A stretch of DNA of 64,000 nucleotides from Parcubacteria group bacterium (GCA_016181845.1 JACOYO010000005.1:2845-66844); one strand, 5' to 3'; positions 16,388 through 46,394 are shown, numbered from the stretch's first letter. Notes: a model not told the origin generated them from the letters alone. Numbers and translations: made by a program.

Positions 16388-17098
16388 ATGCATAACGAAT
16401 TTTTTCATTTACTTAATCGCGGCGTAGACAAAAGAAACATTTTTCTAGACGAAAGGGATTATTTTAGATTCATACATAACTTATTTGAATTCAACGATAT
16501 TAATAATGTCAATCCAAATAGCAGTAATCGTGTATTTAAATCTAAATCTCACAATTCCCAATGGTTGGACATCGGATGTCCAACCATTGGGAAAACTGAA
16601 AGAAGACCGCGTAAATTGTTGGTAAATATTCACTTCTTTTGTCTAATGCCCAATCATTACCATCTTCTTGTCTCCCCTCTCGTGGAAAATGGCATCTCAT
16701 ATTTTATGAAAAAATTAAATATGGGATACTCAAAATATTTTAACGAAAAATATGATAGGTCCGGAGCTTTGTTCCAGGGAAAGTACAAATCCGTTCACAT
16801 TGAACGGGACGCTCATTTTTTATGGATTCCTTATTATATTCACTTTAATCCTTTGGAATTAAAATTTCCCTCGTGGAAACATGAAAAAGTCTCCGATTAT
16901 AAACAAGCTATGAAATATTTAGAATCTTATAGATGGAGCAGTCATTTGGATTATCTAGGAAAGAAAAATTTTCCTTCGGTAACACAACGAGATTTTTTTC
17001 TTGAATCTTTTGGCGGAGAAAAGAAGTATCAAAATTCTGTTTCAGAATCTCTCTCTGAAATAAATATATCCGATATGGAAAATATAACTCTTGAGTAA
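16388..17098 (+). CDS. IS200/IS605-family HuH (Y1) transposase, RAYT-like, with an in-frame REP1 copy inside the CDS
   Basis: HuH motif [12 protein letters not shown], with the conserved downstream block [24 protein letters not shown]. The start is the ATG at 16388 ([12 protein letters not shown]); the ORF-track N-terminus is REP-encoded. A REP1 palindrome lies in frame at 16557-16591. Confidence 0.65.
16557..16591. repeat. REP1-family palindrome, copy c, embedded in frame in the transposase CDS (it encodes [13 protein letters not shown])
   Basis: cccaatggttggacatcggatgtccaaccattggg is a 35-bp extended palindrome. Confidence 0.8.
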
Positions 17099-17109
17099 TT
17101 TGAGTAATT

Positions 17110-17130
17110 GTTGGACATCGGATGTCCAAC
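17110..17130. repeat. REP1-family palindrome, copy d, 12 bp after the transposase stop
   Basis: gttggacatcggatgtccaac. Confidence 0.8.
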
Positions 17131-17138
17131 GGGTTGTC

Positions 17139-18491
17139 TTAATCGCCTTGCAAGATGTCAATCATATTTTGATATTTTTCCGCAAGCGCCATCACGTCGT
17201 CCCCATAAAACGCATACGATGGTTTCTGCCAATTACCTCCAGCCAAATACCGAAGCGCCGCGCGGCGCTCGGCGGTATACCCGCCAGCGCTAGCGCCGTT
17301 ATCCCGAAGCAAGAGCGCCGCCGCCATGAAAGCGTCTCCGGCATCCCACGGATTTGGCGGATTGTGTCCTGTCCGCGAAGCGATGGACGATTTATAGAGC
17401 TGCCATGTCGTCGGCATGAACTGCGCCGGTCCCATCGCCCCGCCGCATCCGTAGTATGGCGCCTTTGAAACTGGCATCGTATCGGGATTGAGGCCAAGCT
17501 CGCCGGTAATTGCAAGAAATGCAGATTTTTGATTTTCAGCCGATGTTGGATATCCTATGCTTATATAACATTGATACAAATCTTTTTTCCAATTACCAGT
17601 GCCGACATTTGCGCCGAGCTCCGATTCTTCGGCTATCGTCCCTAAAATAAATGCCGAGCGGACCCCAGTTGCCTTAGACGCCTTATCGGCAAATTGCAGA
17701 GCTTTTTCAAAAGGGATAGCCGCACTGCCACGAAGTGCAAACAACTCGCTTCTGATGACGGCTGCCGATTTTTCTTTTTGTTTGATAATCTGCTGATACG
17801 CATCTTCTTGCCCTTTGGTTATCTTGAGAATCTGTTTTTTATCGGCCTCACTTTGTTCTATGCGGCGTTGTTGCAACACCTGAATCCCGCGCAATTCTTC
17901 TTCTTCCGCCCGTTTTGATTCAAGCGCGTGCTTCTGCTCTTCGGTAAGATTTTTTGTATTTTCTATTTCATCAAGCGACTCACTCAACGCACGCCCAAGA
18001 AAATCGAGCGAATCAATGTCCGAAAACAAATCTGAAATATTTTCTTGCGCGAGAACAACTTCCACGATGGAGTACTGATCAACTTCGTTTGTCTTGCGCA
18101 CGAGCTGGGCAAGCGAGCGCCGTTCGCCGTCCATTTTTTCAATCAATGTACCTATCACTTTCTGTTTGTCTGCGATGTCGGTGCGTAATTTTTGAATTGC
18201 GATATCGCGGACACGAATGCTCAACTTGGCCTTCTCTATTTGAGCGTTCAAAATCGCGACATCCCGCTCAAGCGACACACGCTCACGCTGTTTGCTTTGA
18301 AGAACCGTCTGCTGTCCCGCGATTTCCTTCTCAAGATTGGCGAGGTCGTCCTCAAGCTGCGCGCGGCGGGCGTCAATGGTCGTGGCTATATCGGCGGCAA
18401 AAATATTCCCAACATTAAAAAAACCAAAAGACGCGGTTTGCCCAAAAACAAACACAAATATGCCTAGATAAAAAGACAATTTCTTCAACAT
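17139..18491 (-). CDS. Secreted or membrane-anchored coiled-coil protein with a C-terminal lytic-transglycosylase (SLT)-like domain
   Basis: N-terminal TM/signal, then ~250 aa of coiled coil. The C-terminus has GTIAEESELG...YYGCGGAMGPAQFMPTTW, with a catalytic Glu and a GLMQ-like block. Confidence 0.5.
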   Translation of the reverse strand: MLKKLSFYLGIFVFVFGQTASFGFFNVGNIFAADIATTIDARRAQLEDDLANLEKEIAGQQTVLQSKQRERVSLERDVAILNAQIEKAKLSIRVRDIAIQKLRTDIADKQKVIGTLIEKMDGERRSLAQLVRKTNEVDQYSIVEVVLAQENISDLFSDIDSLDFLGRALSESLDEIENTKNLTEEQKHALESKRAEEEELRGIQVLQQRRIEQSEADKKQILKITKGQEDAYQQIIKQKEKSAAVIRSELFALRGSAAIPFEKALQFADKASKATGVRSAFILGTIAEESELGANVGTGNWKKDLYQCYISIGYPTSAENQKSAFLAITGELGLNPDTMPVSKAPYYGCGGAMGPAQFMPTTWQLYKSSIASRTGHNPPNPWDAGDAFMAAALLLRDNGASAGGYTAERRAALRYLAGGNWQKPSYAFYGDDVMALAEKYQNMIDILQGD

Positions 18492-18520
18492 AAAAGATAT
18501 AAGTAGTATAGCATATTATA

Positions 18521-18556
18521 AAAAACCGCCTCGTCTGAAACAGGGCGGTTTTTTTA
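18521..18556 (-). terminator. Rho-independent terminator downstream of rplY
   Basis: aaaaaaccgcctcgtctgaaacagggcggttttttt is a perfect GC stem plus a T-run. Confidence 0.55.
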
Positions 18557-18560
18557 ATTA

Positions 18561-19217
18561 TTAAGCCTTGGTTTCGCTTGGCGCGGCCTCGCTTCCTTCT
18601 TCTTCTTTCTTGCCTTTCTTTTCCACTTCAATCGCAGAAAGGTCTATCGGCGCGGGCGCTTCTTCTTTTTCTTCAACTTTTTGAGTTATCATCGCGACTA
18701 CTTCTTCCGGATTATCCGTCGCCACTGCGCTTTCAGGAAGCGCGATATCTTTGATGGAAATCTGGCTGTCAAAATCTTTCAGCGTTGAAATATCAACTTT
18801 GATTTCATGCGGCAAATGTTTCGGCAACACTTCTATTTCCATTTCATACATCACTTTTACGAGCGTCCCGCCCAAATCTTTGACCGCAGGAGAAACACCT
18901 TCAAAAACAATCGGCACAGTAACCGTCACTTTCTTTTTCGCGTCAATCACATAAAAATCAGCGTGGATAGGCTCTCCGCGGACAGGGTCAAGCGTCACTT
19001 CATGAATCAAGATATCAAGCTTTCCTTCCGTGGTTTCAAGCGCAATCACCGATGATTCACCGGCTTCGTGCCATATTTTTTGAAAATCTTTCGTTGATAC
19101 AGAAACGGGCTTTGACGTGGTTTTTGAACCATAAAAAACCGCTGGCATTCTGCCTTCTTTTCGGAGCTTCGCGAGCCCTTTTTTCGCATCTCTTTTTTCT
19201 GTCGCTAATGTAAACAT
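18561..19217 (-). CDS. rplY: 50S ribosomal protein L25 / general stress protein Ctc
   Basis: N-terminus ..EKRDAKKGLAKLRKEGRMPAVFYG, beta-barrel blocks DFYVIDAKKKVTVTVPIVFEG, and an acidic C-terminal tail. Confidence 0.8.
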   Translation of the reverse strand: MFTLATEKRDAKKGLAKLRKEGRMPAVFYGSKTTSKPVSVSTKDFQKIWHEAGESSVIALETTEGKLDILIHEVTLDPVRGEPIHADFYVIDAKKKVTVTVPIVFEGVSPAVKDLGGTLVKVMYEMEIEVLPKHLPHEIKVDISTLKDFDSQISIKDIALPESAVATDNPEEVVAMITQKVEEKEEAPAPIDLSAIEVEKKGKKEEEGSEAAPSETKA

Positions 19218-19263
19218 ACACTACTGTATACACGAAAAACTCTTTCGTGTCAAAAAAATTAAT

Positions 19264-19287
19264 ATGTTGGACATCGGATGTCCAACA
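19264..19287. repeat. REP1-family palindrome, copy e; a solo copy between rplY and fba
   Basis: atgttggacatcggatgtccaaca. Confidence 0.8.
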
Positions 19288-19292
19288 ATTCA

Positions 19293-20144
19293 TTATGACT
19301 TGCTAAAAAGTCTCAAGCGCTTTTCGGCGGCTGTTCGCACCGCCTCTCGGGCATCATTCAAAATGTGATAAGGAGCAACGTCATCGGGATACCGCGACAA
19401 GTGATTTGCTACGGCGTCTTTCCACGCGACACGAATTTCGGTATTGATATGAATAATAGAGATTCCCGCTTTTATCGCGGCAAGAAAATCATCATCGGAA
19501 ATGCCGGAACCGCCATGAAGCACAAGCGGCACATTAGCGCTTTTTTTTATGTCGCCAATGCGCGCTATATCAAGACGCGGATTGGAAACGTTTTTCAGCA
19601 TGCCGTGAATATTGCCAACTGCCGGCGCAAGCATATCAACACCAGTTTCTTTAGCGAAATCTGCCGCTTCTTTGGGCTCCGTCAATTCCACCCCTTCGGG
19701 TATTGCATCTAATAATTTTGAAGAAACGCCGATAAAGCCAAGCTCTCCTTCCACCAGTACGTCGCGGCCAGAAGTGCCTGCGTATAAGACACATTGCTTG
19801 GTTATCGCAATACGTTCGTCTGCTGGCAATTTCGTGCCGTCAAAAATCACGGCATCCACTCCAGCGTCAATCGCATCTTTCACCTTTTCAAATGAATACG
19901 TGTGGTCGGCATTCACATACATCGGCACGCCAATCTCTTCCGAAATGCTTTTAACCGCTACCACCGCCTGCCTGATGCCGAAAAATTCGCGCTCTCCTTC
20001 CGAAAGTCCGATAATAACCGGTACGCCGACATTTTTTGCGGCAAGCGCAATCCCCCACAGCGCATCAATCGTTGAGATATTAAAATGCCCGATGGCAACA
20101 CCGCTCTTTACCGCGTCTGTTATTGTTTCTCGGAGTGTTTTCAT
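19293..20144 (-). CDS. fba: Fructose-bisphosphate aldolase, class II
   Basis: GVAIGHFNISTIDALWGIALAAKNVGVPVIIGLSEGE ... LVLHGGSGISDDDFLAAIKAGISIIHINTE are class II FBA/tagatose-bisphosphate aldolase blocks. Confidence 0.85.
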   Translation of the reverse strand: MKTLRETITDAVKSGVAIGHFNISTIDALWGIALAAKNVGVPVIIGLSEGEREFFGIRQAVVAVKSISEEIGVPMYVNADHTYSFEKVKDAIDAGVDAVIFDGTKLPADERIAITKQCVLYAGTSGRDVLVEGELGFIGVSSKLLDAIPEGVELTEPKEAADFAKETGVDMLAPAVGNIHGMLKNVSNPRLDIARIGDIKKSANVPLVLHGGSGISDDDFLAAIKAGISIIHINTEIRVAWKDAVANHLSRYPDDVAPYHILNDAREAVRTAAEKRLRLFSKS

Positions 20145-20169
20145 TACATTATGATATACTGTAAATAAG

Positions 20170-20318
20170 ATGTCAGATCTCTTGATTGGTAAAATATCGG
20201 CATTGGCCGTTTAGACGTCCGACCTCTGGATTGGTAAAATATCGACATTGGCCACAAATAAAAAATTACCACATCAGAGGTCGGACGTCTCGCACATCAG
20301 AGGTAGGACATCTTAAGT
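20170..20318. repeat. REP3-family MITE-like element: a 16-bp inverted repeat AGACGTCCGACCTCTG/CAGAGGTCGGACGTCT flanking a ~45-nt spacer, with tandem sub-duplications
   Basis: A near-identical ~110-bp element recurs at 51964-52073. It sits in the divergent promoter region between fba and the pfkB-family kinase gene. Confidence 0.7.
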
Positions 20319-20329
20319 ATATCATAAGT

Positions 20330-21319
20330 ATGGAAAATTTTGACTTCATAGCCATCGGCGACACGACGACCGATGCGTTTATTAAAATCAAACAGGCAAG
20401 CGTCTATAAAGACGGCGTAGGCGAAGAAAAACTCTGCGTTGAAAACGGGGCAAAAATCCCCTATGAATCTGTGACCGTTGTGCCGGCCGTTGGCAACAGC
20501 CCAAACGCGGCAGTCGCGGCGCACCGACTCGGATTGCAGTCCGCTCTTGTGTCAAATATCGGTGATGACGCCTACGGAAAAGAAGATTTGGAAACACTCA
20601 AAAAAAATGGCGTAGACACGCGATTCGTGAAAGTGCATACTGGAAAGCCGAGCAACTATCACTTCGTGCTCTGGTTTCATGCGGAGCGCACCATTCTCAT
20701 CAAGCACACGGAATACCCGTACGAGTTCCACGACATCGGAAAACCAAAGTGGGTGTACCTTTCATCGTTGGGAGAAAACTCTCTTTCGTACCACCATGAA
20801 ATCTCGGCATTTTTAAAAACGAACCCAGACATTAAACTCGCGTTTCAGCCGGGCACCTTTCAGATAAAGTTGGGCTACGAAGCGTTAAAAGATTTGTATG
20901 AAATGTCAGAATTGTTTTTCTGCAATAAAGAAGAAGCGCGCATAATTTTGAAGACTGCTCGAGACGACGCCGCGAAACTCGCAGAAATGATGCGCGAGCG
21001 CGGACCAAAAATCGCCATCATCACCGACGGTCCAAACGGCGCATACGCGGCAAATGGCAATGCGACATGGCACATACCGATGTATCCAGACCCTGCGCCG
21101 CCAATTGACCGCACCGGCGCCGGAGACGCATTCGCATCAACCGTCACTTCGTACATGACGCTCGGCATGTCTATTGAAGAAGCGCTCTTGCGAGGGCCAA
21201 TCAATTCCATGTCGGTCGTGCAGTTCGTCGGCGCGCAAGAAGGACTTTTGGGCCGTGAAAAACTGGAGGAATTGTTAAAAAAAGCGCCAAAAGAATACAG
21301 AGCAGAAAAAATAGGATAA
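20330..21319 (+). CDS. PfkB/ribokinase-family carbohydrate kinase
   Basis: An N-terminal GG-like block (FIAIGDTTTDAF) and the C-terminal anion-hole motif DRTGAGDAFAS. The start is the ATG at 20330; the ORF-track N-terminus is REP3-derived. Confidence 0.75.
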   Translation: MENFDFIAIGDTTTDAFIKIKQASVYKDGVGEEKLCVENGAKIPYESVTVVPAVGNSPNAAVAAHRLGLQSALVSNIGDDAYGKEDLETLKKNGVDTRFVKVHTGKPSNYHFVLWFHAERTILIKHTEYPYEFHDIGKPKWVYLSSLGENSLSYHHEISAFLKTNPDIKLAFQPGTFQIKLGYEALKDLYEMSELFFCNKEEARIILKTARDDAAKLAEMMRERGPKIAIITDGPNGAYAANGNATWHIPMYPDPAPPIDRTGAGDAFASTVTSYMTLGMSIEEALLRGPINSMSVVQFVGAQEGLLGREKLEELLKKAPKEYRAEKIG

Positions 21320-21339
21320 ACTATAAATCCCGCCGGCAT

Positions 21340-21762
21340 TCACGGCGGGATTTTATTGAAATCAGACTTTCCTCTTTTTTTTTCCAAAATGGAAAGTTTA
21401 AATTTAAGCAAGGCAATATTTAATTTATTGGCAAGGAATTCATACCAGATGGATCGAAGCCCTTGAAAATTACCGCGTGCGTTCTTAAACTCTTCAATTT
21501 TTGCTTTGTATTCGTCTATTTGAGCGGCCGACAAATGATGAATCTCCTCTTTCTTCATAGCCCGCTGCCCTTCTTCCACGAAATCAAGCCACTTCATGTC
21601 CTCCTCATTCAACAAACCCAAAAACTCTTGCACATTATCAATGGATGAAAAATGAGCGGTCTTTTTGAGAGCCCTTTCGTCTTTAATCAAAAGATGGACT
21701 TTCTCTCGAAAAAGTTTCATTTGGTCTGCTAATTCATTTTGTTGTGGATTTTCTGTGCTCAT
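21340..21762 (-). CDS. Hypothetical protein
   Basis: ORF with no recognised motif. Confidence 0.35.
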   Translation of the reverse strand: MSTENPQQNELADQMKLFREKVHLLIKDERALKKTAHFSSIDNVQEFLGLLNEEDMKWLDFVEEGQRAMKKEEIHHLSAAQIDEYKAKIEEFKNARGNFQGLRSIWYEFLANKLNIALLKFKLSILEKKRGKSDFNKIPP

Positions 21763-22748
21763 TTTCGTTCCTTTACTTTTTTTACTGCTGTTATAATTGA
21801 AGCTATATCAATACCGTATTCTTTTATCAGTTCATTGGGTTCGCCTGACTGCCCAAATCTATTTTGCACTCCGACAAATTCCATCGGAACCGGATATTCG
21901 CGGGCAAGCACTTCCGCAACCGCCGAGCCCATACCACCCATGACCTGATGCTCTTCAACCGTGACCACGGCTCCGGCTTTTTTCGCCACTGCAACAACCG
22001 CCTTTGCATCCATTGGTTTTATTGTATGATTATTTAACACTAAAACGTTAATCTTGTCAAGCGCCAACTGCTCTGCCGCCGTGAGCGCGTTGTGCATAAT
22101 AGAACCACAGGCGATAATCGCCACATCTGGACTTTCGCTCTCCCAAAGAAGATTCGCATTCCCTATTTCAAACGGTGATTCGTTCGTCGTGATAATCGGC
22201 GTTTTTTCGCGCGCGAAGCGGAGATATGTCGGCTTGCCATTAAACGCGGCGGCATACGTCGCTTTCCTCGCTTCTTCAGCATCGCAAGGAACGATAACTG
22301 TCATATTTGGCTGTACGCGCATCAGCGCAATATCCTCAAGCGCTTGATGGGTCGCGCCGTCTGGTCCTACCGAAACACCAGCATGCATACCGCAGATTTT
22401 CACAGGCGCGTCATTGAGCGCAATCGTCGTGCGAATTTGTTCGTTGTTACGCCCGGGAGAAAAGACGGCGTAAGATGAAATGAAAGGAATTTTCCCGTAG
22501 ACGGCAAGTCCTGAAGCCACCGTCGCCAGATTTTGCTCCGCCACACCGAGCTCAATGTATCGCTTGGGGAATTTTTCGGCAAACCAGTGCGAACGCGTAG
22601 ACTCCGCCAAATCGGCGCAGAGCACCACGACCCTCTCGTCTTTTTCGCCCGCTTCCAACACACCCTTGCCATAGCCGTCGCGGGTCGGTGCCTGTTCAAC
22701 ATCCGGGCTAAAAATATTTTCTTTCAGTTTTTGTGATTTGTTTAACAT
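21759..22748 (-). CDS. Transketolase, C-terminal subunit (pyrimidine-binding and C-terminal domains) of a split transketolase
   Basis: ..RDGYGKGVLEAGEKDERVVVLCADLAESTRSHWFAEKFPKRYIELGVAEQNLATVASGLA.. matches the transketolase Pyr domain. The adjacent upstream gene encodes the TPP-binding N-terminal half. Confidence 0.8.
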   Translation of the reverse strand: MLNKSQKLKENIFSPDVEQAPTRDGYGKGVLEAGEKDERVVVLCADLAESTRSHWFAEKFPKRYIELGVAEQNLATVASGLAVYGKIPFISSYAVFSPGRNNEQIRTTIALNDAPVKICGMHAGVSVGPDGATHQALEDIALMRVQPNMTVIVPCDAEEARKATYAAAFNGKPTYLRFAREKTPIITTNESPFEIGNANLLWESESPDVAIIACGSIMHNALTAAEQLALDKINVLVLNNHTIKPMDAKAVVAVAKKAGAVVTVEEHQVMGGMGSAVAEVLAREYPVPMEFVGVQNRFGQSGEPNELIKEYGIDIASIITAVKKVKERK

Positions 22749-22874
22749 ATTCTTAAATAATTTTGAATTTCCAATTTTTAATTTTGAATCAAATTCTAAT
22801 TTTAAATTAAGATATTCTAAATTTATTCGAAATTCAAAATTCAAAATTGTTTAAGATTTCATGTTTCATGAATA

Positions 22875-23735
22875 TTATTCATGTTCACTCTTAATCTTTC
22901 CGCCAAGCGTCCGCAATTCGGCCAAAAATTTTTTCGCTTCTTCGGGCTTCGGCGGCTTCCCATGCCAGAGATAATCAAATTCAATTTCTTTTATGCCTTT
23001 GCCCGGGATCGTGTGCGCGATAATCACCGTCGGTTTTTCAAAAATCGCTTTTGCTTCTTCAATCGCGGAAACAAATTGCTCAAAATCATGCCCGCCCGTT
23101 TCAATCACATGCCAATTGAATGCTCTGTATTTATCAGCAAGCGGCTCAAGAGGCATCACGTCTTCAGTCATACCGTTAATCTGGATATTGTTGCGGTCTA
23201 TCACCGCCGTCAGATTTGAGAGCTTGTTTTTGCCCGCAAACATCACTGATTCCCAAAGGTTGCCGGCATCGTGTTCACCATCGGATAAAAGGCAGTAGGT
23301 GCGGAATTTTTTGCCGTCCATGCGCGCGCCGTATGCAATGCCAGCCGCCTGCCCAAGCCCCGAACCAAGAGGTCCGGATGTGCTCTCCATAGATGGCATT
23401 CGCGTTCGTTCCGGATGTCCCTGCAGCCGTGAGCCAAATTTTCGCAGGGTGTTTAATTCTTCAATAGGAAAATAGCCGGCGTGCGCCATCGTAGCGTATC
23501 GTATCGGCACAATGTGGCCGTTGGAAAGAATCAAACGGTCACGTTCTTCCCAAAGCGGATTCTTGGGGTCGTGATTTAGAATATGAAAATAGAATGCGGT
23601 AAATATGTCCGCCATGCCCAAAGGACCTGCCGTGTGCCCGGAACCCGCCGCCACAAGCTCCGTAATAAGCGACTGCCTGATTGCATTTGCTTTTTCTTCA
23701 AGAAATCGTATTTTGTCGTCGTGAAGATGCGCCAT
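22875..23735 (-). CDS. Transketolase, N-terminal subunit (TPP-binding)
   Basis: GSGHTAGPLGMADIFTAFYF...LILSNGH...CLLSDGEHDAGNLWES...AVIDRNNIQINGMT carries the TPP-binding GDG/N motifs. Confidence 0.8.
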   Translation of the reverse strand: MAHLHDDKIRFLEEKANAIRQSLITELVAAGSGHTAGPLGMADIFTAFYFHILNHDPKNPLWEERDRLILSNGHIVPIRYATMAHAGYFPIEELNTLRKFGSRLQGHPERTRMPSMESTSGPLGSGLGQAAGIAYGARMDGKKFRTYCLLSDGEHDAGNLWESVMFAGKNKLSNLTAVIDRNNIQINGMTEDVMPLEPLADKYRAFNWHVIETGGHDFEQFVSAIEEAKAIFEKPTVIIAHTIPGKGIKEIEFDYLWHGKPPKPEEAKKFLAELRTLGGKIKSEHE

Positions 23736-23740
23736 AACTT

Positions 23741-24076
23741 TTATTTTCCGCTTTCTATGCCGAGTTTTTGTTCAACATATTTTAACCGCGCGTATAAGTC
23801 TTCCACTTCTATCGGACTCGTGCCTAACGGAGTAAGATTGTTTCTCAAATCTTCAATGTCGTTATGCAACAGACGAAAATTTTCTCCTGTTTTGAGTTCA
23901 AAATCTTCAAAACGCCGTTCAAGCGCATCAAAACGTTTATCAACCTGTTCAAAACGTTTATCAACTTGTTTGAAACGCTCATCTACATTTTCAAAACCTG
24001 CGGTAATAATCTCCGCCAGGTCATTTCGGAATTGTTTAAACTCACTTTGTAAAAATTGTTTCGTTTCTTCATTCAT
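23741..24076 (-). CDS. Hypothetical coiled-coil protein
   Basis: An ORF with repeated KRFEQVDKRF heptad-like segments. Confidence 0.35.
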   Translation of the reverse strand: MNEETKQFLQSEFKQFRNDLAEIITAGFENVDERFKQVDKRFEQVDKRFDALERRFEDFELKTGENFRLLHNDIEDLRNNLTPLGTSPIEVEDLYARLKYVEQKLGIESGK

Positions 24077-24747: not shown

Positions 24748-24824
24748 GTTAAAAATTTTTAATTTTGAATTTTGAATTTTGAATAAATTTTGAATATCTT
24801 AATTTTAAATTCAAAATTGGAAAT

Positions 24825-25283: not shown

Positions 25284-25296
25284 AATAAAAAAATAA

Positions 25297-29296: not shown

Positions 29297-29297
29297 A

Positions 29298-38193: not shown

Positions 38194-38370
38194 ATCTTAT
38201 TATCTATACAAATGTGGTCAGCCGGAGCGAGCTCCAAAGCAAATATCTATGTGAGTGCGCGGCTGACCGCATTTACATACAAAACATATCTTCAGTATAG
38301 CATCATGCTCATACAGCGCAATCACTTGGAGGCTTCGCCTCCAAGTCTTCTAAGTGACGCCAAAAAACGT

Positions 38371-38395
38371 AAAACCCCGCACTTGGCGGGGTTTT
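38371..38395 (-). terminator. Rho-independent terminator downstream of the TPR membrane protein gene
   Basis: aaaaccccgcacttggcggggtttt. Confidence 0.55.
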
Positions 38396-38514
38396 ACGCA
38401 GATATTGCTCGAGAAATGTCTCCAATGAAGGACACACTCACATTTCAAAGATAGCAGACGGCATGCAAAAAGTCAAGAAATTTATCCACAACCGTAGAGC
38501 GAATGTCCGTCTGA

Positions 38515-40707
38515 TTATGGATTCCGTCCAGCCCGAATTTCATTGATAAAATATTCCCCCTTGTCCTTAAATTGCGGATTGATGATTATAACTTTTTGTA
38601 TTTCATTGATGGCTTGCTGGCGTTCTCCAATTTGCAAGTAGCTCGCGCCGAGAGAGAGGTGATACTGCGGATTATTCGGGTCTTTCTCAAGACGCAATTT
38701 CCATATCGCGATAACTTTGTCGTATTGCCCTGTCGCCGCATACGCGCCTATTAATCGGTCATCGTCAATAATCATTGTGCCATATACAGATACGAGCAGT
38801 TCTTTCGCCAAATCATTCTGCCCCGCATAAAGAGCCGCCATCGCGTACACCACCAGCGCGCGGTCATACGTTTGGTCAAATTCAAACGCTGTTTTTAATG
38901 TTGCAAGCGATTTATCGTATTCTTTTTTGTTTAAATATGAAGTTGCGAGTTCAAAATACATCGCTTGTTTTTTCGGAGAAAGCTCAATGGCGCGTAGAGC
39001 ATACGGAATCGCGGCGTCAAAATTGCCGGTGCGGTTAAGAAATGACGCCATAAAGATTTGGTATCGGGCATCGTTTGGCATTTGTTTGATTTGTTTTTGC
39101 ATCTCATCTCCGCCGAGCGCGGCAAATTGTTGTTTCAAATCGGGAGAAACATTGATGTCGGCGGCTTGCGAAGCGGCTTGCAATAGTTGTTCCCGTGTTT
39201 CAGAAGTGCCAAAGGTCTCGTAAGAGAGCGCTTTTTTATAAAATTCCAAATTCTTTTCGGGTCCTTCTTGGTGCGGCGCAAGCGCTTGCAAGAGTGATTG
39301 CGCGGTCAATATGCCTTTGATGTTTACAACATACAGCACCGACACAAGCGCAATAAGCACGATAGGTCCGAAGATGAGACCGGCATGTTTATTTGTCATT
39401 TCCTCACCATTATTATTCACAAAAGCGTTTGCTTTTGCTGTTTCAACAGCCATCGCGTGCATGTAGGCGAGCATTGAGAAAAAAAGAATATAACTGATGA
39501 GATTATCAAACACAAATACATTGTGGAAAAAATAACCCGCCAAAAGCCCCGTGAGAATACTTTTATCAACGAGAGAAAAATGATTGTCTGAACTCTTTCG
39601 CCAAAGATAATAAAGAATTGCGCCAAAAAGCGAGAGGTATGATAAAAGACCCAAAAGACCGCCGGCAATAAGCCAGTCAAAAAAGATATTGTGGGAACGG
39701 TCAAACCACGGCTCCTGCCTCCAAAGACGCGGTTCAAAATATTTGTTGAATACTAAATTATAATTTTCCTGACCCCAGCCGAGAATCGGGTGCTCTTTGA
39801 ACCCTTGTATACTCATGCCCCAAATAATAAAACGAGATTGGGTAGTGACTTCACTCGGAGAAATATTGGCAAAACGGGAAAGCACCGGGCTTGTTTTTAC
39901 AAATTCTGTATTTCTAGCCGCTAAAAACGCGCCTGCCAGCGCCAAAATTCCGATGAAAACTCCTGCGGTAATTTTCCGCGCGCGCGGATATTCTTTTCCA
40001 AAAACCATTACGAGAAAAGCCGCGAGCAACGCCCCGCCGATAAGACCCAAAATAGTGCCACGAGTCGCCGTATAATACAAAACGACAAGCTCCGCTGTCA
40101 TGAGCGCTCCGTAAATCCATTTCACCCATTGCGCGCCACGATGTCTGAACAAAAGAAACGCGAGAATAAAAATATGAAAGAGCATGTATACGGCCAAGTA
40201 CGTTGGATTGCCAAGTGTCGCATCCAAACGGCTCCCCTGATGGAGAGAGAGCGTTCGTACCAATTGCACGATGCTATAGATGCTCACTATAGCGCTAGCG
40301 CCGATAGATGTATTCGCAAACCACCACCATAATCTTTGCGTATTAAGAACGGTCCCTGCCACGAGTACATACGCGCCCAAGTGCCAAATGGTGATGAGCC
40401 CCTCCATCCGTTCAAAATTGCTCCAAAAACTTTTATATATATTTTCGCCCAAAAAATCTGCGAGCGTGATAATGCCGACAAACGCTGATACTGCCGCAAA
40501 CACCCATGAAAACCTCGGGCGATGCGACGAATCGCGATACGCCAGTATAAGCCATAGCGCAAAAACGATTTCAATGATAATCCGAAATGCAAAATTTTTT
40601 CCGGTTATAAACGGAAAAAACATTGACGGCACGACGATAAGCGGTATAAAAGGAACCAAAAAGATGCCTCCAATAATAATCCGCCGCAAGATAGTGTTTA
40701 TATTCAT
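38515..40707 (-). CDS. Polytopic membrane protein (~12 TM, O-antigen-ligase/Wzy-like?) with C-terminal TPR repeats
   Basis: Many predicted TM helices in the N-terminal 450 aa, then tandem TPR-like repeats (AIELSPKKQAMYFELATSYLNKKEYDKSL...). The Wzy-like assignment is a guess. Confidence 0.45.
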   Translation of the reverse strand: MNINTILRRIIIGGIFLVPFIPLIVVPSMFFPFITGKNFAFRIIIEIVFALWLILAYRDSSHRPRFSWVFAAVSAFVGIITLADFLGENIYKSFWSNFERMEGLITIWHLGAYVLVAGTVLNTQRLWWWFANTSIGASAIVSIYSIVQLVRTLSLHQGSRLDATLGNPTYLAVYMLFHIFILAFLLFRHRGAQWVKWIYGALMTAELVVLYYTATRGTILGLIGGALLAAFLVMVFGKEYPRARKITAGVFIGILALAGAFLAARNTEFVKTSPVLSRFANISPSEVTTQSRFIIWGMSIQGFKEHPILGWGQENYNLVFNKYFEPRLWRQEPWFDRSHNIFFDWLIAGGLLGLLSYLSLFGAILYYLWRKSSDNHFSLVDKSILTGLLAGYFFHNVFVFDNLISYILFFSMLAYMHAMAVETAKANAFVNNNGEEMTNKHAGLIFGPIVLIALVSVLYVVNIKGILTAQSLLQALAPHQEGPEKNLEFYKKALSYETFGTSETREQLLQAASQAADINVSPDLKQQFAALGGDEMQKQIKQMPNDARYQIFMASFLNRTGNFDAAIPYALRAIELSPKKQAMYFELATSYLNKKEYDKSLATLKTAFEFDQTYDRALVVYAMAALYAGQNDLAKELLVSVYGTMIIDDDRLIGAYAATGQYDKVIAIWKLRLEKDPNNPQYHLSLGASYLQIGERQQAINEIQKVIIINPQFKDKGEYFINEIRAGRNP

Positions 40708-41039
40708 AGCATTTAGTCTATCGTAAAACGCGCCCGGCTACAAGCAAGGCGCGTTTTTTAACAAAATCAAAAACGGAGCAGACGGCGCGGTGGGTTGGCA
40801 ATAATATCAACCACACCGCAAAACAAAAGAAGTACGATCAACCCCAAAAAGATAAGAAAAAGATTGTATCGAATCACCCACCAATAGTTACTGAAACGAG
40901 ACATAATTTCTCCTTTCCAAAGGATAGCGTGTTCATACTTTCTCTATATCAAAGTATAGTAAAAAAACCGCAGTTTGGATACCTCATAATATGCTACCAC
41001 AGATTAGAAGGGCTCTTTATCGCCGTATTGTTTGAATGA

Positions 41040-41096
41040 TTTACAAAGGTTCCTCCTTCGTGAGTTATCCACAACGAAGGAGGAACCTTTGTAAAA
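41040..41096. repeat. REP2-family composite palindrome: an inverted pair of the 16-nt core flanking a DnaA-box-containing spacer
   Basis: tttacaaaggttcctccttcgtgagTTATCCACAacgaaggaggaacctttgtaaaa. Confidence 0.75.
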
Positions 41097-41119
41097 CTCT
41101 TAAAAATCAATCGCCACAA

Positions 41120-44100
41120 TCACCAAAGATTCGCGGGACTGGTAGTGGCAACATTATTATTTCCAAAAGTAATATTGGAAACTGAAATGGAATAATTGTT
41201 TGTCGTCGCCGTGTCCGCAGAAACTGCGAGCGTGTTGTCTGAAAAAATAACATCCGAAAGAATAATTGGCGAATTGAGATACGATAGCGCCGTTTTCATA
41301 AACTTAAAGACCGCGCCGGAAATATTTGAAGTACTGCCCGATTGCAATACCGTGCTTTGAATAATGCCCGTGGCGCCAGTGCTCGCGCCGTCGTTTGACG
41401 CATCGTTTCCATTCGAGTCGTCGTAAACTGAAGTAAAAGTAACAGGATGTTCCGCGGTGCTTTGGATAGACAAATGACCATTAACCAAAAGCCGCTCGTC
41501 TTTGAATTTTACGATCACATCCGGGTCAATCGCAAGAGTTGAACTTGCAAGAATAGTTACCGTGCCTGATTGTTTTATCAAATACGGCAGCGTATTTTGT
41601 TTTAGCGTCGTTGTCGCGTTTGTTTTGGTGATAGCGCTGGCGAGCGCGATGCCATTCCATGCGTTTCCAGACCCGCTATTGCCTGAAAAATAGCCGTCAC
41701 CGATAACGCCGCTCGCGTAAATTGCTTCAGACGTGCTCGACGCAATAGTATTTGATGAGACTCGCGCTTCAGACGCAACCATATAAATACCGATAACATT
41801 ATCGGAAAATTGATTGTTTTCTATCGTCGGCGCGCCGCCGGTGCTCATCACGCCTCCCATCCAAAAACCGGAACCGTTATGCTGAAATACTGAATTGGAA
41901 ATAGTGGAACTTGCGGAGAAAAGCCGCAGACCGTGCATGCCTCCATACTCAAAAGTAGAGTGATTAATTGATGGCGAGGTATTTGCCAAATATAGATTGG
42001 CGGACGGCTGTCCTTGTCCGTCATAATATTTTCCACCATAACGAAACAGCGCGTAATCAAACACCGACGCATCGGAGCCCAACGCAAGCTCCACGCCATA
42101 CCAATCTCTTTTGGCGGGAGCGGTTACGCTGCCGTCTTGATTGGTATCGCCACCATAAGCATCATCAAGAAAACTGGTGAAAATTATTTTGTCGCTTTCC
42201 GTGCCTTGCGCATTCAATGTGCCCGACACGGCAAGACGGGCATTGTTATAAAATTTAATGATGGCGCCGGGTTCAAGCGTGAGTGTCTTACCCGACTGCA
42301 CAGTAATCGTGTCGTTATTTACCACATACGGACTTTTTGTTTTTTCAATAGTCATATTTTCTGTAATTGTCGGGTTGCCTTTGTTGAGCATGCGCGAAAA
42401 ACTATTGTATGCTTTTGGAGTTCCGTTGAGCACACTGCCGTTTGTATCATATCCGTTACGGATAATGACCTGGTTCCGTCCCCAATTTGTCCAGTCGGTG
42501 CCAGCTACATTCACATCAAAACGTTCCATTGAACGAAAATCTGGACTGCCGCTTCCTTTTGCGCACCAAACATAGCAATACGAAATCTCATCTATTGTCG
42601 TTGTCGCACTGCTTCCGCTTTTTCGCGCGAGAATAAGATTTTCGCCATCATTACTCAAGCCATCTCCAAAACTTGTCCATAAGTCGGCGGTGATATCTTT
42701 CACAGGTGACTGCGTTGCCTCGTCAGTTTCTCCTGTATTTTTTCTTTCAATCAGATAATAGCCGCCGGCTGGAATGGAGCCGCTCAAAGAAATATACGGA
42801 GAGCCGTCTGCCGTGTAAATTATAAACTCTGAAAGATTCACGGTGCTTGCCGTTTTGTTGTACAGTTCTATCCATTCATCAGCTGTGGATGCGTTTGTCC
42901 CGCCCCACGCCACTTCATTTATCACCACAGGCGAGGTGCTTATTTCCGCAGTAATAGTTGTTGTTGCTGAAGCGTTGCCTGATGTATCAATCGCCGCAAT
43001 CGCAAAAGAATAAGTTGTGTTGTTTGTTGCCGAAGCTGATGTTGAAGTCGCGGTCGTCGTGCTCACGGCGCCGTTTTTATTGATGACAAAGTGGCTGAAA
43101 TCATTCGCTTCAGAAGATAACCACGAAATAGAGAGCGTTGTTGTCGCGACGAGACAGCCGCTTGAAGCAAGCGAGCTTGCGCATTCTGCAATTGCGGGCG
43201 CGGGTGATTGCGGCGCGATTGAATCTATAAAAAATGTCGTGCTTGTGGCGGCAGAAATATTGCCCGCGCCGTCGGTGGCAAAAAATTGCGCTGTCGTCGT
43301 GCCTTGATTAAAAGTAAGCGCAAGAGACCATTCACCTGATTGGCTGACAGTGGTTGTCGCCGATGATACATCAGAGTTTATGACACTTCCCGATTCGGCA
43401 GTCCCGCTAAAGATTATTGATGGGCTCGTAAAGGTTCGCAAAAAATCCGCCGGAGCGGTGATCGCGGGGGCGGATGGCGGGATGGTGTCTGTTGCTGTTT
43501 GTGCATTCGCCGAAGATGTGGTTTGTGTTGTTGCATCTCCTCCTCCGCCGAAGCCTGGTGTGACAATTATCGGAAGTGATACGCCGGGAACAGTTTTGTT
43601 TGCGGAAGCATTTTCAGTGTTAAGCACTGCATCCGGTGAACCGCCGACATATGCTTCATCAGAATTTTGGTTTTGATTGGTTTGTTCTTCGGTGCGCAAA
43701 TTTGTGTTTTTCAGAGAAAAATCGGCAAGTGCAAAAGCAAGCGCTTGTGTTTCTTTTTCTGCCATCGCTACTTTTTGCTCAAGCGCGAGAAGCTCTTTGA
43801 CAGGCGACACGACATCACTAACATCACTAGATGACAGAAGCACAGGTTGTTCTTTTGTGAGCGGTAAATCAAGCACTTCAGCCACCGCGCTTGATTGCTC
43901 TTTTGGTGATGTGTTAAAGACGCTCGCGAGAGTGTTGGCGACTGAAAATATTCCTTGCGCAAGAGTGCTTCCCGCTTGATGCGCTCCTTTTGCAACAGCA
44001 ACAACAGTGCTTATACTTTTGCTTGCAACAGGGTCAGCAACGGCAAATATCGCGCCTTCTATTTTGTGTACGCGGGTCAGCTTGGGCGCTACGATACAGG

Positions 44101-44845
44101 GCATATTTTCGTCTATTCTATCATTGCTTTTTAATGCATCTAACGAAGCCGCTATATCAGAAACAACCTGACCGCCACGATATTTCAGATATACTTTCGC
44201 GAAATCATGCCCAGTAATATCATCGTCGGATTTTAATTTAATGTGAGTATTCGGCGGCATAATGCTTTTGAATGGAACATGCCCGACAACGCCGGCAATC
44301 ACTTTATCCGTATCGGACGTGAGCCATTTTCCGCCGCCGGCAACACTGCTTGCCGGAGTCGCAACACTGTAAACACCCATTGATTCTTTTGAGACGCCAG
44401 CTTCTTGCTCCGCGACGGTATCATAAAAACTATTGGCATAAAAATTGCCCTGTGAATGGGCAACGAGAAGGAGTTTTTGAGTACGAACTTTTTCACTTGC
44501 TGATTTAAGCATTTCCACGAGGTCATAGTCTGTCACTGTCTCCTGGTCAAACAACCCCTGTTCTATGGATTTTATAACGTCGCCGATACCGCCGAGGTGC
44601 GGTGGGTTGAGGAGAAAGTCAATAATCAATTTTTCTCCTTTGTAGGTATTCTTAAAATAATATTTTAAAGCATCTCTGTTTGAAATAGCTGCGTTTTCAT
44701 CAGTAAAGACACCATTAATTGTATTGATTGTATAACCCTCAGAAGAACAAGCTTCGCCAGACGTTTGAGCGAAAACTGTAAATGGAGAGAAGCTAACGAA
44801 AAAAGCAACTGCAATTATTTTAAATTTTATTGAAAAATGGTTCAT
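41120..44845 (-). CDS. Giant secreted protein (1241 aa): N-terminal esterase/lipase-like region (AHSQG), central lamin-tail domain, C-terminal parallel beta-helix-like repeats
   Basis: Signal peptide; GxSxG-like LVAHSQGN; the LTD signature VVINEVAWGG..ADEWIELYN...LSGSIPAGGYYLI; T/S/N-rich repeats. Confidence 0.5.
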   Translation of the reverse strand: MNHFSIKFKIIAVAFFVSFSPFTVFAQTSGEACSSEGYTINTINGVFTDENAAISNRDALKYYFKNTYKGEKLIIDFLLNPPHLGGIGDVIKSIEQGLFDQETVTDYDLVEMLKSASEKVRTQKLLLVAHSQGNFYANSFYDTVAEQEAGVSKESMGVYSVATPASSVAGGGKWLTSDTDKVIAGVVGHVPFKSIMPPNTHIKLKSDDDITGHDFAKVYLKYRGGQVVSDIAASLDALKSNDRIDENMPCIVAPKLTRVHKIEGAIFAVADPVASKSISTVVAVAKGAHQAGSTLAQGIFSVANTLASVFNTSPKEQSSAVAEVLDLPLTKEQPVLLSSSDVSDVVSPVKELLALEQKVAMAEKETQALAFALADFSLKNTNLRTEEQTNQNQNSDEAYVGGSPDAVLNTENASANKTVPGVSLPIIVTPGFGGGGDATTQTTSSANAQTATDTIPPSAPAITAPADFLRTFTSPSIIFSGTAESGSVINSDVSSATTTVSQSGEWSLALTFNQGTTTAQFFATDGAGNISAATSTTFFIDSIAPQSPAPAIAECASSLASSGCLVATTTLSISWLSSEANDFSHFVINKNGAVSTTTATSTSASATNNTTYSFAIAAIDTSGNASATTTITAEISTSPVVINEVAWGGTNASTADEWIELYNKTASTVNLSEFIIYTADGSPYISLSGSIPAGGYYLIERKNTGETDEATQSPVKDITADLWTSFGDGLSNDGENLILARKSGSSATTTIDEISYCYVWCAKGSGSPDFRSMERFDVNVAGTDWTNWGRNQVIIRNGYDTNGSVLNGTPKAYNSFSRMLNKGNPTITENMTIEKTKSPYVVNNDTITVQSGKTLTLEPGAIIKFYNNARLAVSGTLNAQGTESDKIIFTSFLDDAYGGDTNQDGSVTAPAKRDWYGVELALGSDASVFDYALFRYGGKYYDGQGQPSANLYLANTSPSINHSTFEYGGMHGLRLFSASSTISNSVFQHNGSGFWMGGVMSTGGAPTIENNQFSDNVIGIYMVASEARVSSNTIASSTSEAIYASGVIGDGYFSGNSGSGNAWNGIALASAITKTNATTTLKQNTLPYLIKQSGTVTILASSTLAIDPDVIVKFKDERLLVNGHLSIQSTAEHPVTFTSVYDDSNGNDASNDGASTGATGIIQSTVLQSGSTSNISGAVFKFMKTALSYLNSPIILSDVIFSDNTLAVSADTATTNNYSISVSNITFGNNNVATTSPANLW

Positions 44846-44851
44846 AAAATC

Positions 44852-45457
44852 CTAATTTGGTAATGCAAAAAGATTAATATCGCATATCTCATTTTCTGAT
44901 TCACTATAACTACCTACATACTGAACAAAATCTTTTCTGGCATTTTGTCGGTCCAGTGTATTTCTTTGCTTATTTTCTACAAACCCATGCAACTTATCTC
45001 CAATTTCAAGAAATTTTTTTATATCATCTCGTGAAGTTATTTCCCCAACGCAATAATGTGCCCTGCTCTGCTCTCTCACAACTTCAGTCACCGTCTCCGT
45101 ATTCACAATCGGCTGTATCACCTCCATCTGCAATGCCAGCGCATACTGAAGCAAAACCGCCCGTGTCTTTGCCGAGTTCGGATATTCTTTAAAAATCTCC
45201 AGCTCAACATCATCACGGATCCCGTTTTGATTCGCGTCAACGCCGGCAATAGTTTTATCCGCATCTGCCCCTGGGTCAGGCGGCAAATTCTTCCCCATCA
45301 CATCATCAAGCGTAAGTTTTGTCGCGTGAATTTTTGCGACTTGTTCTTCCGTCTTTTGCAGATTGTAAAAATAAAACATGCGCACAATGACCAACAAGGC
45401 GTAAGCACTGGCAATGACCGCAAGAATAATCAATAGTATCTTTTTTGTTTTTGACAT
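44852..45457 (-). CDS. Hypothetical membrane-anchored protein
   Basis: N-terminal TM (ILLIILAVIASAYALLVIV), then a soluble domain. Confidence 0.35.
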   Translation of the reverse strand: MSKTKKILLIILAVIASAYALLVIVRMFYFYNLQKTEEQVAKIHATKLTLDDVMGKNLPPDPGADADKTIAGVDANQNGIRDDVELEIFKEYPNSAKTRAVLLQYALALQMEVIQPIVNTETVTEVVREQSRAHYCVGEITSRDDIKKFLEIGDKLHGFVENKQRNTLDRQNARKDFVQYVGSYSESENEICDINLFALPN

Positions 45458-45660
45458 AGTATGAACCGCGATTATCTTGCTTGCTCAACCACCGGAGTAG
45501 CCGGTGTTGACGTATCTTGCACTCCCAAAAAGAAAACGGCGACCACGCCTATAGCGATAATCGCAAGAAACCCGAGTACGAATTTTATAAACGTAGAATT
45601 AAAAAATTTCATATAATACCAATCAGCTAATCAATCTAAACAGTTTACCACAAACCAAAA

Positions 45661-45740
45661 TTACAAAAGTTTACAAAGGTTCCTCCTTCGTTGTGGATAA
45701 CTTGTTATATTTACAAAGGTTCCTCCTTTGTAAATATAAC
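45661..45740. repeat. REP2-family composite element (two direct copies of the core flanking a DnaA box); it overlaps the last 8 codons and stop of the second RAYT-like gene
   Basis: ttacaaaagtttacaaaggttcctccttcgttgTGGATAActtgttatatttacaaaggttcctcctttgtaaatat. Confidence 0.75.
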
Positions 45741-46394
45741 GTTGGTATTGAATTCAGATATTAAATTGCCAATGTCATTTAACGTCTTGAAGTGTTCCGG
45801 GAAAGAATCTTTGTTTAAAATAGAACTTTCCGGTCTATTTTTTACAAAATAATCACCATAACTAGAGTAGTGATAATTAGACAAAAAAGACTTTGTTTTT
45901 GCCAGGTTGGCGATGCCCATCTCTTTCCAATCGGGATTAGCAATCTTTATCGGATTTAGATGAATATATGAAAAAAGCCAATTAAAATACGGCTCATTAT
46001 CAACATATTTTGCTTTGAAAGACCCCTCAAAAAGCGTGCCGGTTCTATCATGCTTCCGATTAAAATACATAGAGTACGCCGTGGCAATCTTTTTCATAAA
46101 AGTACTAATGCCCAAATGCTGTTTTTCATAAATAAGTATATGAAAATGGTTTGGCATAAGGCAATATGCCCCAATATCAACAAGTGTTGATATTTTTTCT
46201 GTGGTAAACAAATTTACGAAGGAGGAACCTTTGTTAAAATAATCCCTCATATCAACCGCTTCAGAATTGTTACATAAATACAAAAGAGCTAAAAAGCGCC
46301 TATAATCATGCTCGTCTTCGAAAATAATTCTTTTATCAGTACCTCTATTGTAAAGATGGTAATAATTACCGAGCGTAAATGATATTTGTCTCAT
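45711..46394 (-). CDS. Second IS200/IS605-family HuH (Y1) transposase, RAYT-like, cognate to REP2, with an in-frame REP2 core inside the CDS
   Basis: HuH motif CLMPNHFHILIYEKQ and the downstream GTLFEGSFKAKYV..YFNWLFSYIHLNP block, collinear with the first RAYT (16388..17098). The start is at 46392-46394. The C-terminal ...TKEEPL* is encoded by a REP2 palindrome. Confidence 0.65.
   Translation of the reverse strand: MRQISFTLGNYYHLYNRGTDKRIIFEDEHDYRRFLALLYLCNNSEAVDMRDYFNKGSSFVNLFTTEKISTLVDIGAYCLMPNHFHILIYEKQHLGISTFMKKIATAYSMYFNRKHDRTGTLFEGSFKAKYVDNEPYFNWLFSYIHLNPIKIANPDWKEMGIANLAKTKSFLSNYHYSSYGDYFVKNRPESSILNKDSFPEHFKTLNDIGNLISEFNTNVIFTKEEPL
46212..46236. repeat. REP2 core copy embedded in frame in the RAYT2 CDS (it encodes FNKGSSFVNL)
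   Basis: atttacgaaggaggaacctttgtta. Confidence 0.75.

Follow-up and report, generated by a model that had tools for sequence, protein, structure and literature searches.

A cognate hairpin within the coding sequence of two Y1 transposase genes of a Parcubacteria group bacterium and of their homologues

In-frame copies of repetitive extragenic palindromes (REPs) inside tnpAREP genes were described as 'a unique feature of subclass 2.4' of these transposases (Quentin, Siguier, Chandler and Fichant 2018, PMC6006769). The in-gene REPs of that subclass are located between the HuH and the Tyr motifs (beta3 to alphaC) and are variable in number, length and sequence; the REPs are of the GT[AG]G or 'double-foot' type and the subclass is found mostly in Cyanobacteria and Bacteroidetes (PMC6006769). 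For subclass 2.1 no REPs were found, the median protein length is 238 amino acids (aa) and many members feature a distal helix-turn-helix (HTH) or Bac_DnaA_C domain (PMC6006769). REPs translated inside other genes are known from Di Nocera et al. 2013 and from the literature on Rickettsia palindromic elements (RPEs), and a search for literature on RAYTs of Patescibacteria or on in-gene hairpins led to no papers other than those of Quentin et al. 2018 and Di Nocera et al. 2013. A stretch of 64,000 nucleotides (nt) from a Parcubacteria group bacterium (GCA_016181845.1 JACOYO010000005.1:2845-66844), called here the window, codes for two divergent proteins of this kind, RAYT1 and RAYT2, each with a palindrome of its own (REP1 and REP2, respectively) that is found on both sides of the gene and once more within the coding sequence. 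Like in subclass 2.4, a cognate REP lies within a RAYT gene without disrupting its reading frame and encodes a peripheral segment of the protein. What is new here relative to subclass 2.4 is the site, which is 5' of the HuH codons (helix A to beta2), the single copy at one conserved position that covaries and changes together with the flanking copies, and the lineage, a Patescibacteria clade that resembles subclass 2.1.

Both loci are three-hairpin units in which a hairpin is followed by the 5' part of the gene, a cognate hairpin, the 3' part of the gene and a further hairpin. The genes and the palindromes of each unit are located in the window as follows, the REP1 copies being listed without strand:
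16388-17098, + strand, RAYT1, 236 aa, HuH at residues 90-92, Tyr motif YIHFNP
16290-16316, REP1 upstream copy U1, loop CGG
16341-16369, REP1 upstream copy U2, inverted loop CCG, ending 18 nt 5' of the ATG
16555-16593 (core 16564-16584), internal REP1 copy of 39 nt, perfect 18-bp stem with a 3-nt loop, encoding residues 57-69
17110-17130, REP1 downstream copy D, 12 nt past the RAYT1 stop codon, terminator-like on the + strand
45711-46394, - strand, RAYT2, 227 aa, HuH at residues 83-85, Tyr motif YIHLNP
46434-46494, - strand, upstream composite module composed of REP2-B (46476-46494), DnaA box TGTGGATAA (46467-46475), a spacer and REP2-A (46434-46452)
46216-46234, - strand, internal REP2 copy of 19 nt, TTCGT subtype, lacking a DnaA box and encoding N54-V60 (NKGSSFV)
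45673-45731, + strand, downstream composite module composed of REP2-B (45673-45691), DnaA box (45692-45700) and REP2-A (45713-45731)

The REP1 core GTTGGACATCGGATGTCCAAC is present in five copies in the window, where 0 are expected, with starts at 16293, 16345, 16564, 17110 and 19266. The 21-nt core of the palindrome inside RAYT1 is that of the REP1 copies flanking the gene, and the whole internal copy, 16555-16593, is the longest inverted repeat of the 64 kb; as DNA it folds with -20.7 kcal/mol (z = -7.8) and as RNA with -30.1 kcal/mol (z = -7.4). REP2 (ACAAAGGTTCCTCCTTYGT), with ten copies against 0.02 expected, has two subtypes, a perfect hairpin TTTACAAAGGTTCCTCCTTTGTAAA and a TTCGT variant followed by the consensus DnaA box TGTGGATAA. 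Four further TTCGT copies have exactly the sequence of the copy inside RAYT2. The downstream module of RAYT2, in the order variant, DnaA box, perfect copy, is inverted relative to the upstream module, and its REP2-A overlaps the end of the gene (45711-45731), encoding the carboxyl-terminal TKEEPL and providing the TAA stop codon. The same ending, with a hairpin overlapping the carboxyl terminus, is found in an 81%-identical orthologue of RAYT2 (L083).

Alignment of the two proteins with MAFFT places the Gly encoded by each hairpin loop in one column. The hairpin centre is 81 nt away from the first His codon of HuH in RAYT1 and 77 nt in RAYT2, a distance of 26-27 codons, and the internal site of both genes falls in the linker that joins helix A to the HuH strand (beta2). 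An earlier reading of this DNA from its sequence only had put the cognate palindrome of both genes at an equivalent point between the amino-terminal block and HuH, a placement borne out by the shared column and linker. The peptides and motifs it quoted are all present at the places it gave; the spacing it estimated, about 20 and about 25 residues between the encoded peptide and LMPNH, has to be corrected to exactly 16 residues in both genes. The AlphaFold model of RAYT1 has beta1 at residues 5-12, helix A at 22-41, an unstructured segment at 42-78 (no DSSP element) and the HuH beta-hairpin at 79-97; the predicted local distance difference test score (pLDDT) is below 50 at residues 46-48 and 50-59, with block means of 47-56 up to residue 70. 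According to this model the internal hairpin of RAYT1 encodes part of a disordered, tolerant linker. In the RAYT2 model the linker contains two short helices, 49-54 and 59-64, separated by the K-G-S-S turn that the hairpin loop encodes. The structure 4ER8, the closest structural match, lacks such a linker. The share of the hairpin in the coding sequence is about 7 residues for the REP core and 13 for the full RAYT1 palindrome.

The homologues surveyed amount to about 140 genes from other Patescibacteria assemblies: 80 genome and 80 metagenome loci were retrieved, and 83 homologous genes and 61 further distinct RAYT1-family metagenomic genes were analyzed. Perfect stems of at least 7 bp, counted over the 83 genes in 30-nt bins relative to the His codon, form peaks at -300 nt (38 genes), -90 nt (28 genes) and +450 nt (37 genes), with 0-6 genes in the remaining coding bins between them. 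These are the three hairpin sites of the family, just 5' of the start, in the linker and at the stop codon; hairpins flank the gene on both sides in 68 of the 83 homologues (6-bp stem criterion). The survey of homologous RAYTs for palindromes in their coding sequences, proposed by the sequence-only reading as a check, thus shows internal hairpins clustered at the same site as in the window. In the genome set, 26 loci repeat the 15-21 nt of the internal core upstream and/or downstream of the gene with 0-1 mismatch, and the cores differ among loci, as illustrated by CGGACTTGCGAAGTCCG, CGGTCCTTGAAGGACCG, CCGAGGTCGGACCTCGG and CCAAGGTCGAACCTTGG. The internal core is likewise cognate to the flanks in about 33 of the 61 further metagenomic genes, and more than 50 genes in all have an internal core within 0-1 mismatch of their own flanking hairpins. 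The internal copy therefore stays matched to the flanks while the sequence of the hairpin changes from genome to genome. A single internal copy is present, separated from the first His codon downstream of it by 59-81 nt at 25 of the 26 loci and by 115 nt at the other.

The hairpin brings no added length to the protein. The linker, measured from the NRG motif to HuH, has 74 aa with and 71 aa without a hairpin in the NHYH clade, and 68 and 67 aa, respectively, in the NHFH clade. These nearly equal lengths lead to rejection of the view, held in the earlier reading, that the segment is an insertion. The excess of about 80 aa over typical proteins, which the hairpin had been thought to explain, is accounted for mainly by a helical carboxyl-terminal extension of about 75 aa, together with the family-wide linker; homologues number thousands and are all 217-274 aa long. 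Some of the genes scored as devoid of an internal copy have a recognisably decayed cognate one. The distribution of the internal hairpin fits an old feature that was repeatedly lost rather than repeated fresh insertion, and the internal copy could have arisen by a conversion-type replacement that did not change the length.

Two further observations were made in the surveyed loci. In L018, L019 and L024 the flanking core is matched exactly in the remaining coding sequence (from position -20 relative to the His codon to -60 relative to the stop codon) and not in the linker. This could reflect an in-gene copy of another kind, or an error in placing the stop codon or the limit of the hairpin. Homologues are also found on contigs binned as Spirochaetia, Gammaproteobacteria, Acidimicrobiales, Omnitrophota and Planctomycetales (L011, L019, L023, L026, L042 and L058), and at one of these, L011, all three cognate hairpins are present. 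Either those contigs are mis-binned or the family reaches beyond Patescibacteria.

The internal hairpin is maintained at the nucleic-acid level, because its core matches the flanks, its paired positions covary, its changes are compensated and a synonymous site is fixed; the amino-acid sequence of the linker is largely dictated by it. When 71 linkers of the RAYT1 family are aligned with MAFFT, blind to structure, the block exactly over the hairpin is free of gaps and the sequence on either side is rich in indels. In this alignment 73.9% of the cells are paired, compared to 59.1% in shuffled versions, none of which (0/500) reaches the observed value, and to 28-40% when the partners are slid. Cells changed on both sides number 177 versus 80 in shuffles, the covariation score is 0.276 versus 0.096, and at least 7 of the 9 inner pairs are kept in 60 of the 71 genes. 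The codon closing the loop, which specifies Gly, Arg or Ala, has an A at its four-fold degenerate third position in 71/71 genes, GGA making up 28% of the Gly codons in the genome under study. The Asp codon of the stem is GAC in 60/71 genes, compared to 39% genome-wide.

The palindrome can also be read in the proteins. Residues 55 and 59 have reverse-complement codon partners in 105 of 120 RAYT2-family proteins (residue 55-59 pairs K-F 38/38, E-F 38/39, Q-L 23/23, R-S 4/7 and I-Y 2/2), and in 120 RAYT1-family proteins I is found with C in 37 and V with R in 34. The peptides encoded by the internal hairpin vary widely (DIGCP, DVGRP, DLRSP, VLEGP, AVGQP, EVGLP, LQGRTL and others), and the DNA is palindromic throughout. 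Wobble pairs of the sense strand are A.C in 14 cases and G.T in 6 in the DNA alignment, the corresponding intermediates in RAYT1-family proteins being I-R (18) and V-C (0). The wobble bias is opposite in the RAYT2 orthologue L083. GC skew suggests that replication between 12 and 64 kb of the window has the minus strand as its leading strand, but the orientations of the REPs are mixed; neither the wobble pairs nor the skew favours one strand as that on which the hairpin would act.

Short-range evolution of the two units can be followed in related assemblies (loci L081, L082 and L084), where both genes are found in a conserved gene order and are therefore vertically inherited rather than recently transposed. 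The upstream, internal and downstream copies of an 82%-identical RAYT1 orthologue have GATGGACAT..ATGTCCATC where those of the window have GTTGGACAT..ATGTCCAAC, so that one compensated pair change is common to all three copies. Two more compensated pairs distinguish the outer stem of the internal hairpin in this orthologue (CCCAA-CT...AG-TTGGG against CCCAA-TG...CA-TTGGG). Since the flanking copies have no outer stem, there is no template for these two changes and conversion from the flanks cannot explain them. In a 74%-identical RAYT2 orthologue (L084) the flanking loop is now CGG/CCG and the internal copy has followed (AAAGGTCGGTCCTTC).

RAYT1 and RAYT2 belong to the Y1 HuH transposase superfamily according to their Pfam score, motifs and fold. 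Both are identical to proteins labelled 'MAG: transposase [Parcubacteria group bacterium]' from a 136-kb contig and share 34% identity with each other, which makes them divergent paralogues. The Pfam profile Y1_Tnp (PF01797; cutoff 23) matches them with 36.4 and 40.1 bits, respectively, the match beginning in both only at profile position 41. The HuH motif reads NHYH in RAYT1 and NHFH in RAYT2, and the Tyr motif YIHFNP and YIHLNP. A family-profile sequence search against solved structures gave 0 matches and structural relatives emerged solely by fold search: Foldseek with the AlphaFold model of RAYT1 (mean pLDDT 80; 87 for RAYT2) ranks 4ER8_A, the REP-bound RAYT of E. coli, first (E = 5e-5), ahead of 2XM3, 2A6M and 2VJV, which are transposases of ISDra2 and IS608. 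The NCBIfam RAYT equivalog NF047646 gives 36 and 42.5 bits, below its cutoff of 80, and the GT[AG]G foot tetranucleotide is absent, REP1 having GTTG as foot (GATG in the orthologue) and REP2 no such tag. Other properties of RAYTs are present: copy number is low and inheritance vertical, as seen from the two divergent paralogues and from the gene order conserved in related assemblies, and cognate palindromes flank both genes. Copies distant from the genes are limited within the 64 kb to one of REP1 and five of REP2. The proteins also depart from the IS200/IS605 TnpA (subclass 1.1) by a Tyr motif of the form Y...NP instead of Y...Q, by their length of 227-236 aa and by having paralogues that are 34% identical.

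The REPtron of E. coli (TnpAREP, 4ER8) has in common with the two units the Y1 HuH fold, the Y...NP motif, cognate bracketing hairpins and a hairpin family of its own for each paralogue. It differs in that the window proteins are about 70 aa longer, lack the GTAG foot, score below the NF047646 cutoff and have few dispersed copies of their hairpins in the 64 kb. We know of no report of an internal REP copy in the E. coli RAYT gene. IS608 and ISDra2, of the IS200/IS605 family, are likewise compact units of a small Y1 gene (TnpA) between subterminal hairpins at the left and right ends, and these hairpins are recognised as single-stranded DNA; the window loci differ from them by Y...NP in place of Y...Q, by a conserved gene order in place of multiple identical copies, by flanking hairpins in the same or in inverted orientation and by the third, internal hairpin. 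In phiX174 gene A and pT181 repC the nick site of a HuH nuclease, the origin, is positioned within the nuclease's own gene and is associated with cis-preferential action. These genes provide a parallel for a HuH recognition site inside the coding sequence of the enzyme, but they code for initiators of replication from a single origin, while nothing in the window indicates rolling-circle replication.

When compared to Table 1 of Quentin et al. 2018 (PMC6006769), the window proteins look like subclass 2.1 in motifs and length. They share with the TIRYT or TnpAY1 proteins of that subclass (Di Nocera et al. 2013; PMC6006769) a length of about 230-240 aa, the NH[YF]H and Y[IV]H[LF]NP motifs and a carboxyl-terminal extension with an SS motif, and the inverted composite modules of about 60 nt bracketing RAYT2 resemble terminal inverted repeats. 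They differ by the presence of hairpins, some with an adjoining DnaA box, and by their carboxyl-terminal 75 aa, in which Pfam detects no HTH, Bac_DnaA_C or DnaA-like domain even at E = 10. Rickettsia palindromic elements also are palindromic repeats translated in a tolerant surface segment of a functional protein; theirs, however, are scattered in unrelated genes and add length, whereas here the repeat occupies a conserved site, without added length, in the gene of the enzyme presumed to recognise it.

Binding and cutting of cognate hairpins by Y1 HuH enzymes requires single-stranded DNA, as established for IS608, ISDra2 and E. coli TnpAREP. By analogy, the internal copy may be a third binding site for the product of the gene that carries it. 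Replication or transcription of the gene would expose this putative minimal site, where the enzyme would bind in cis, probably without putting it to use in transposition; that reading is favoured because the accessory sequences flanking the hairpins in the terminal modules are missing from the internal copies. Binding would throttle expression, by a roadblock or by self-nicking, and/or keep freshly synthesised enzyme tethered to the element that encodes it. The copies would be kept matched by their shared fit to the specificity of one protein, along with copy-correction between repeats. A third, regulatory or tethering site for the gene's own product is the explanation that we tentatively prefer, as plausible if not quite probable. 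Its more specific form, a selected and self-addressed site at which the enzyme binds or nicks its own gene when single-stranded, providing negative feedback and cis-tethering, is possible but doubtful.

Several results weigh against such a role. About 29 of the 83 genes keep both flanking hairpins and have no internal one, which makes the internal copy dispensable, and its presence and absence are interleaved across the neighbour-joining tree. The internal loop has no fixed orientation with respect to those of the flanking copies. In the more divergent RAYT2-like set the structure-blind DNA test gives a modest effect (72.8% paired versus 63.6% shuffled), and the internal REP2 taken alone is a weak hairpin, with an A.C mismatch in the sense strand, that folds no better than shuffles. 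The mechanism is borrowed from the biochemistry of distant relatives, and copy-correction combined with palindrome repair by template switching could keep a functionless copy perfect. The loss of the internal copy in many lineages that retain the flanks, and the free flipping of its loop, would equally be expected of a neutral passenger, a REP that landed or was copied into a tolerant linker and has been refreshed ever since by conversion or template switching, with self-correction of the palindrome and no benefit. In-frame REPs in tolerant loops have precedents in subclass 2.4 tnpAREP and in the RPEs, the host site in RAYT1 is predicted to be disordered, and the identity between internal and flanking copies, which at times reaches 29-31 nt, suggests copying rather than independent selection. 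A passenger does not readily account for occupation of the same site in two subfamilies that are 34% identical, and in 60/71 RAYT1-family genes, for a gap-free block amid flanks rich in indels, for compensated outer-stem changes that have no template in the flanking copies, for the absence of a length difference between linkers with and without hairpin, or for the lack of a comparable pile-up of stems at any other coding position. We regard it as a possible though rather unlikely account. The sequence-only reading had argued for function rather than accident: the shared position is indeed no accident, being family-wide, covarying and matched to the flanking hairpins of each genome, while the step from there to function is taken only with the reserve expressed above, and the mechanisms that it had named, autoregulation in cis through binding of the product to its own hairpin or use of the hairpin as a guide or landing pad, are hypothetical.

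The internal hairpin might also serve as an alternative end or seed of transposition, cleavable and paired with a flanking hairpin, so that part of the unit is excised or copied, solo hairpins are produced or the REP is ensured to travel. Its core equals that of the flanking copies, presumed substrates of the enzyme if IS608, ISDra2 and E. coli TnpAREP are taken as models, and the window holds solo copies and REPIN-like pairs of both REPs. This use is improbable, as the internal REP2 has neither DnaA box nor second hairpin, the outer stem of the internal REP1 is different, a crude screen of 158 HuH motif matches found 0 genes truncated at the hairpin, and the conserved gene order of both genes shows that the units move rarely. 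Less probable still is an element acting in the mRNA independently of the transposase, be it by pausing or attenuating translation, by offering a site to RNase III or by stabilising the transcript. IS200 does limit transposase synthesis by RNA structures, and the RAYT1 hairpin is very stable as RNA; the sense-strand hairpin of RAYT2, however, is no better than shuffles (-3.7 kcal/mol, z = 0.07), so that an mRNA-hairpin role is unlikely for RAYT2. A role in RNA would also leave the match to the flanking DNA hairpins unexplained, the internal hairpins are not terminator-like, and the predominance of the I-R (A.C) intermediate, with V-C (G.U) never seen, is opposite to the prediction for an RNA stem, although a protein-level preference for Arg over Cys could cause this bias. 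The least credible alternative, given a negligible weight, is an ordinary conserved protein motif (DIGCP, KGxxF) whose DNA is palindromic by chance. In its favour, Gly56 and Phe63 hardly vary among RAYT2-family proteins and the model shows a helix-turn-helix at this segment, but the peptides are diverse across genomes while the DNA palindrome persists, synonymous positions are fixed and the same DNA is found again outside the gene. The motif reading is rejected on the fixation of synonymous sites and the variety of peptides; with it falls one of the two outcomes that the earlier reading had named as fatal to its own proposal, namely a segment of ordinary protein sequence with no constraint on the DNA.

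Two regulatory candidates were examined separately. An intrinsic terminator was rejected, the internal hairpins being unflagged on either strand and the downstream copies flagged. Promoter-like antisense matches over the internal REP2 (9/12) are no commoner than in shuffles and were disregarded.

The internal hairpin bears on how REPs and RAYTs stay matched, on how RAYT activity is restrained and on what RAYTs do. An internal hairpin that leaves an imprint of reverse-complement codon pairs on the protein is a natural experiment on the co-evolution of specificity, replicated across hundreds of lineages. Y1 enzymes associated with hairpins are thereby known from Patescibacteria too, in a clade similar to a subclass for which no REPs had been reported. 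The hairpin is also a clear case in which the structure of the nucleic acid, and not the function of the protein, dictates a stretch of amino acids. A self-addressed site, if true, would be a previously undescribed means of transposase self-control and would tie the specificity of the protein, as it evolves, to a hairpin copy inseparable from the gene. The co-evolution of REP and RAYT would then be directly testable, each gene carrying its own substrate.

The region upstream of RAYT1 has additional signals. A strong promoter-like match (11/12) is found at 16347-16374, with a -35-like TGGACA inside the 5' arm of REP1 U2 and a perfect TATAAT 16 nt past it, 14 nt 5' of the RAYT1 ATG, an arrangement repeated in the orthologue L081. 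If this promoter is real, extrusion of the U2 hairpin or binding of the enzyme to it would overlap RAYT1's own promoter. The reading frame extended 5' of the ATG (16343-16387) crosses the upstream hairpin and would encode LDIRCPT, a peptide similar to the one encoded internally. The annotation of the orthologue (L081 150-206) takes a start of this kind, which makes the protein 255 aa long and is probably an artefact of the hairpin.

The genes adjacent to RAYT1 (16388-20144) code for a 450-aa SLT_2-like protein, ribosomal protein L25 and an aldolase. RAYT2 is neighboured (44852-51166) by a TPR gene and a gene of 1211 aa on one side and by a gene of 201 aa on the other. The remaining copies of the two palindromes in the window are the following:
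19266-19286, no strand assigned, solo REP1 copy in an intergenic spacer
13037-13055, - strand, lone REP2-A copy
41043-41092, no strand assigned, inverted REP2-B pair around a DnaA box, REPIN-like
47351-47411, - strand, solo B-box-A module 5' of a neighbouring gene

The exact DnaA-box consensus TTATCCACA occurs nine times in the window, where 0.44 are expected. Four of these boxes adjoin REP2 copies of the TTCGT subtype (41065-41073, 45692-45700, 46467-46475 and 47384-47392), two of them with an adjoining near-box TTATTCACA, and further exact boxes are found at 6190, 37111, 38482, 51771 and 62971. In the flanking-hairpin zones of the 83 homologous loci exact DnaA boxes are enriched 7.5-fold, yet are present in only 10 genes; at locus L012 the box forms part of the hairpin stem itself.

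The window also has two identical imperfect palindromes of 36 nt, ACCCGCACCCTGACCGGCG / CGCCGGTCTTGATTCTGGT, at 7948-7983 and 8484-8519, that are unrelated to REP1 and REP2. They are 536 nt apart, one within the open reading frame (ORF) 7309-8484 and the other at the start of the overlapping ORF 8457-9968.

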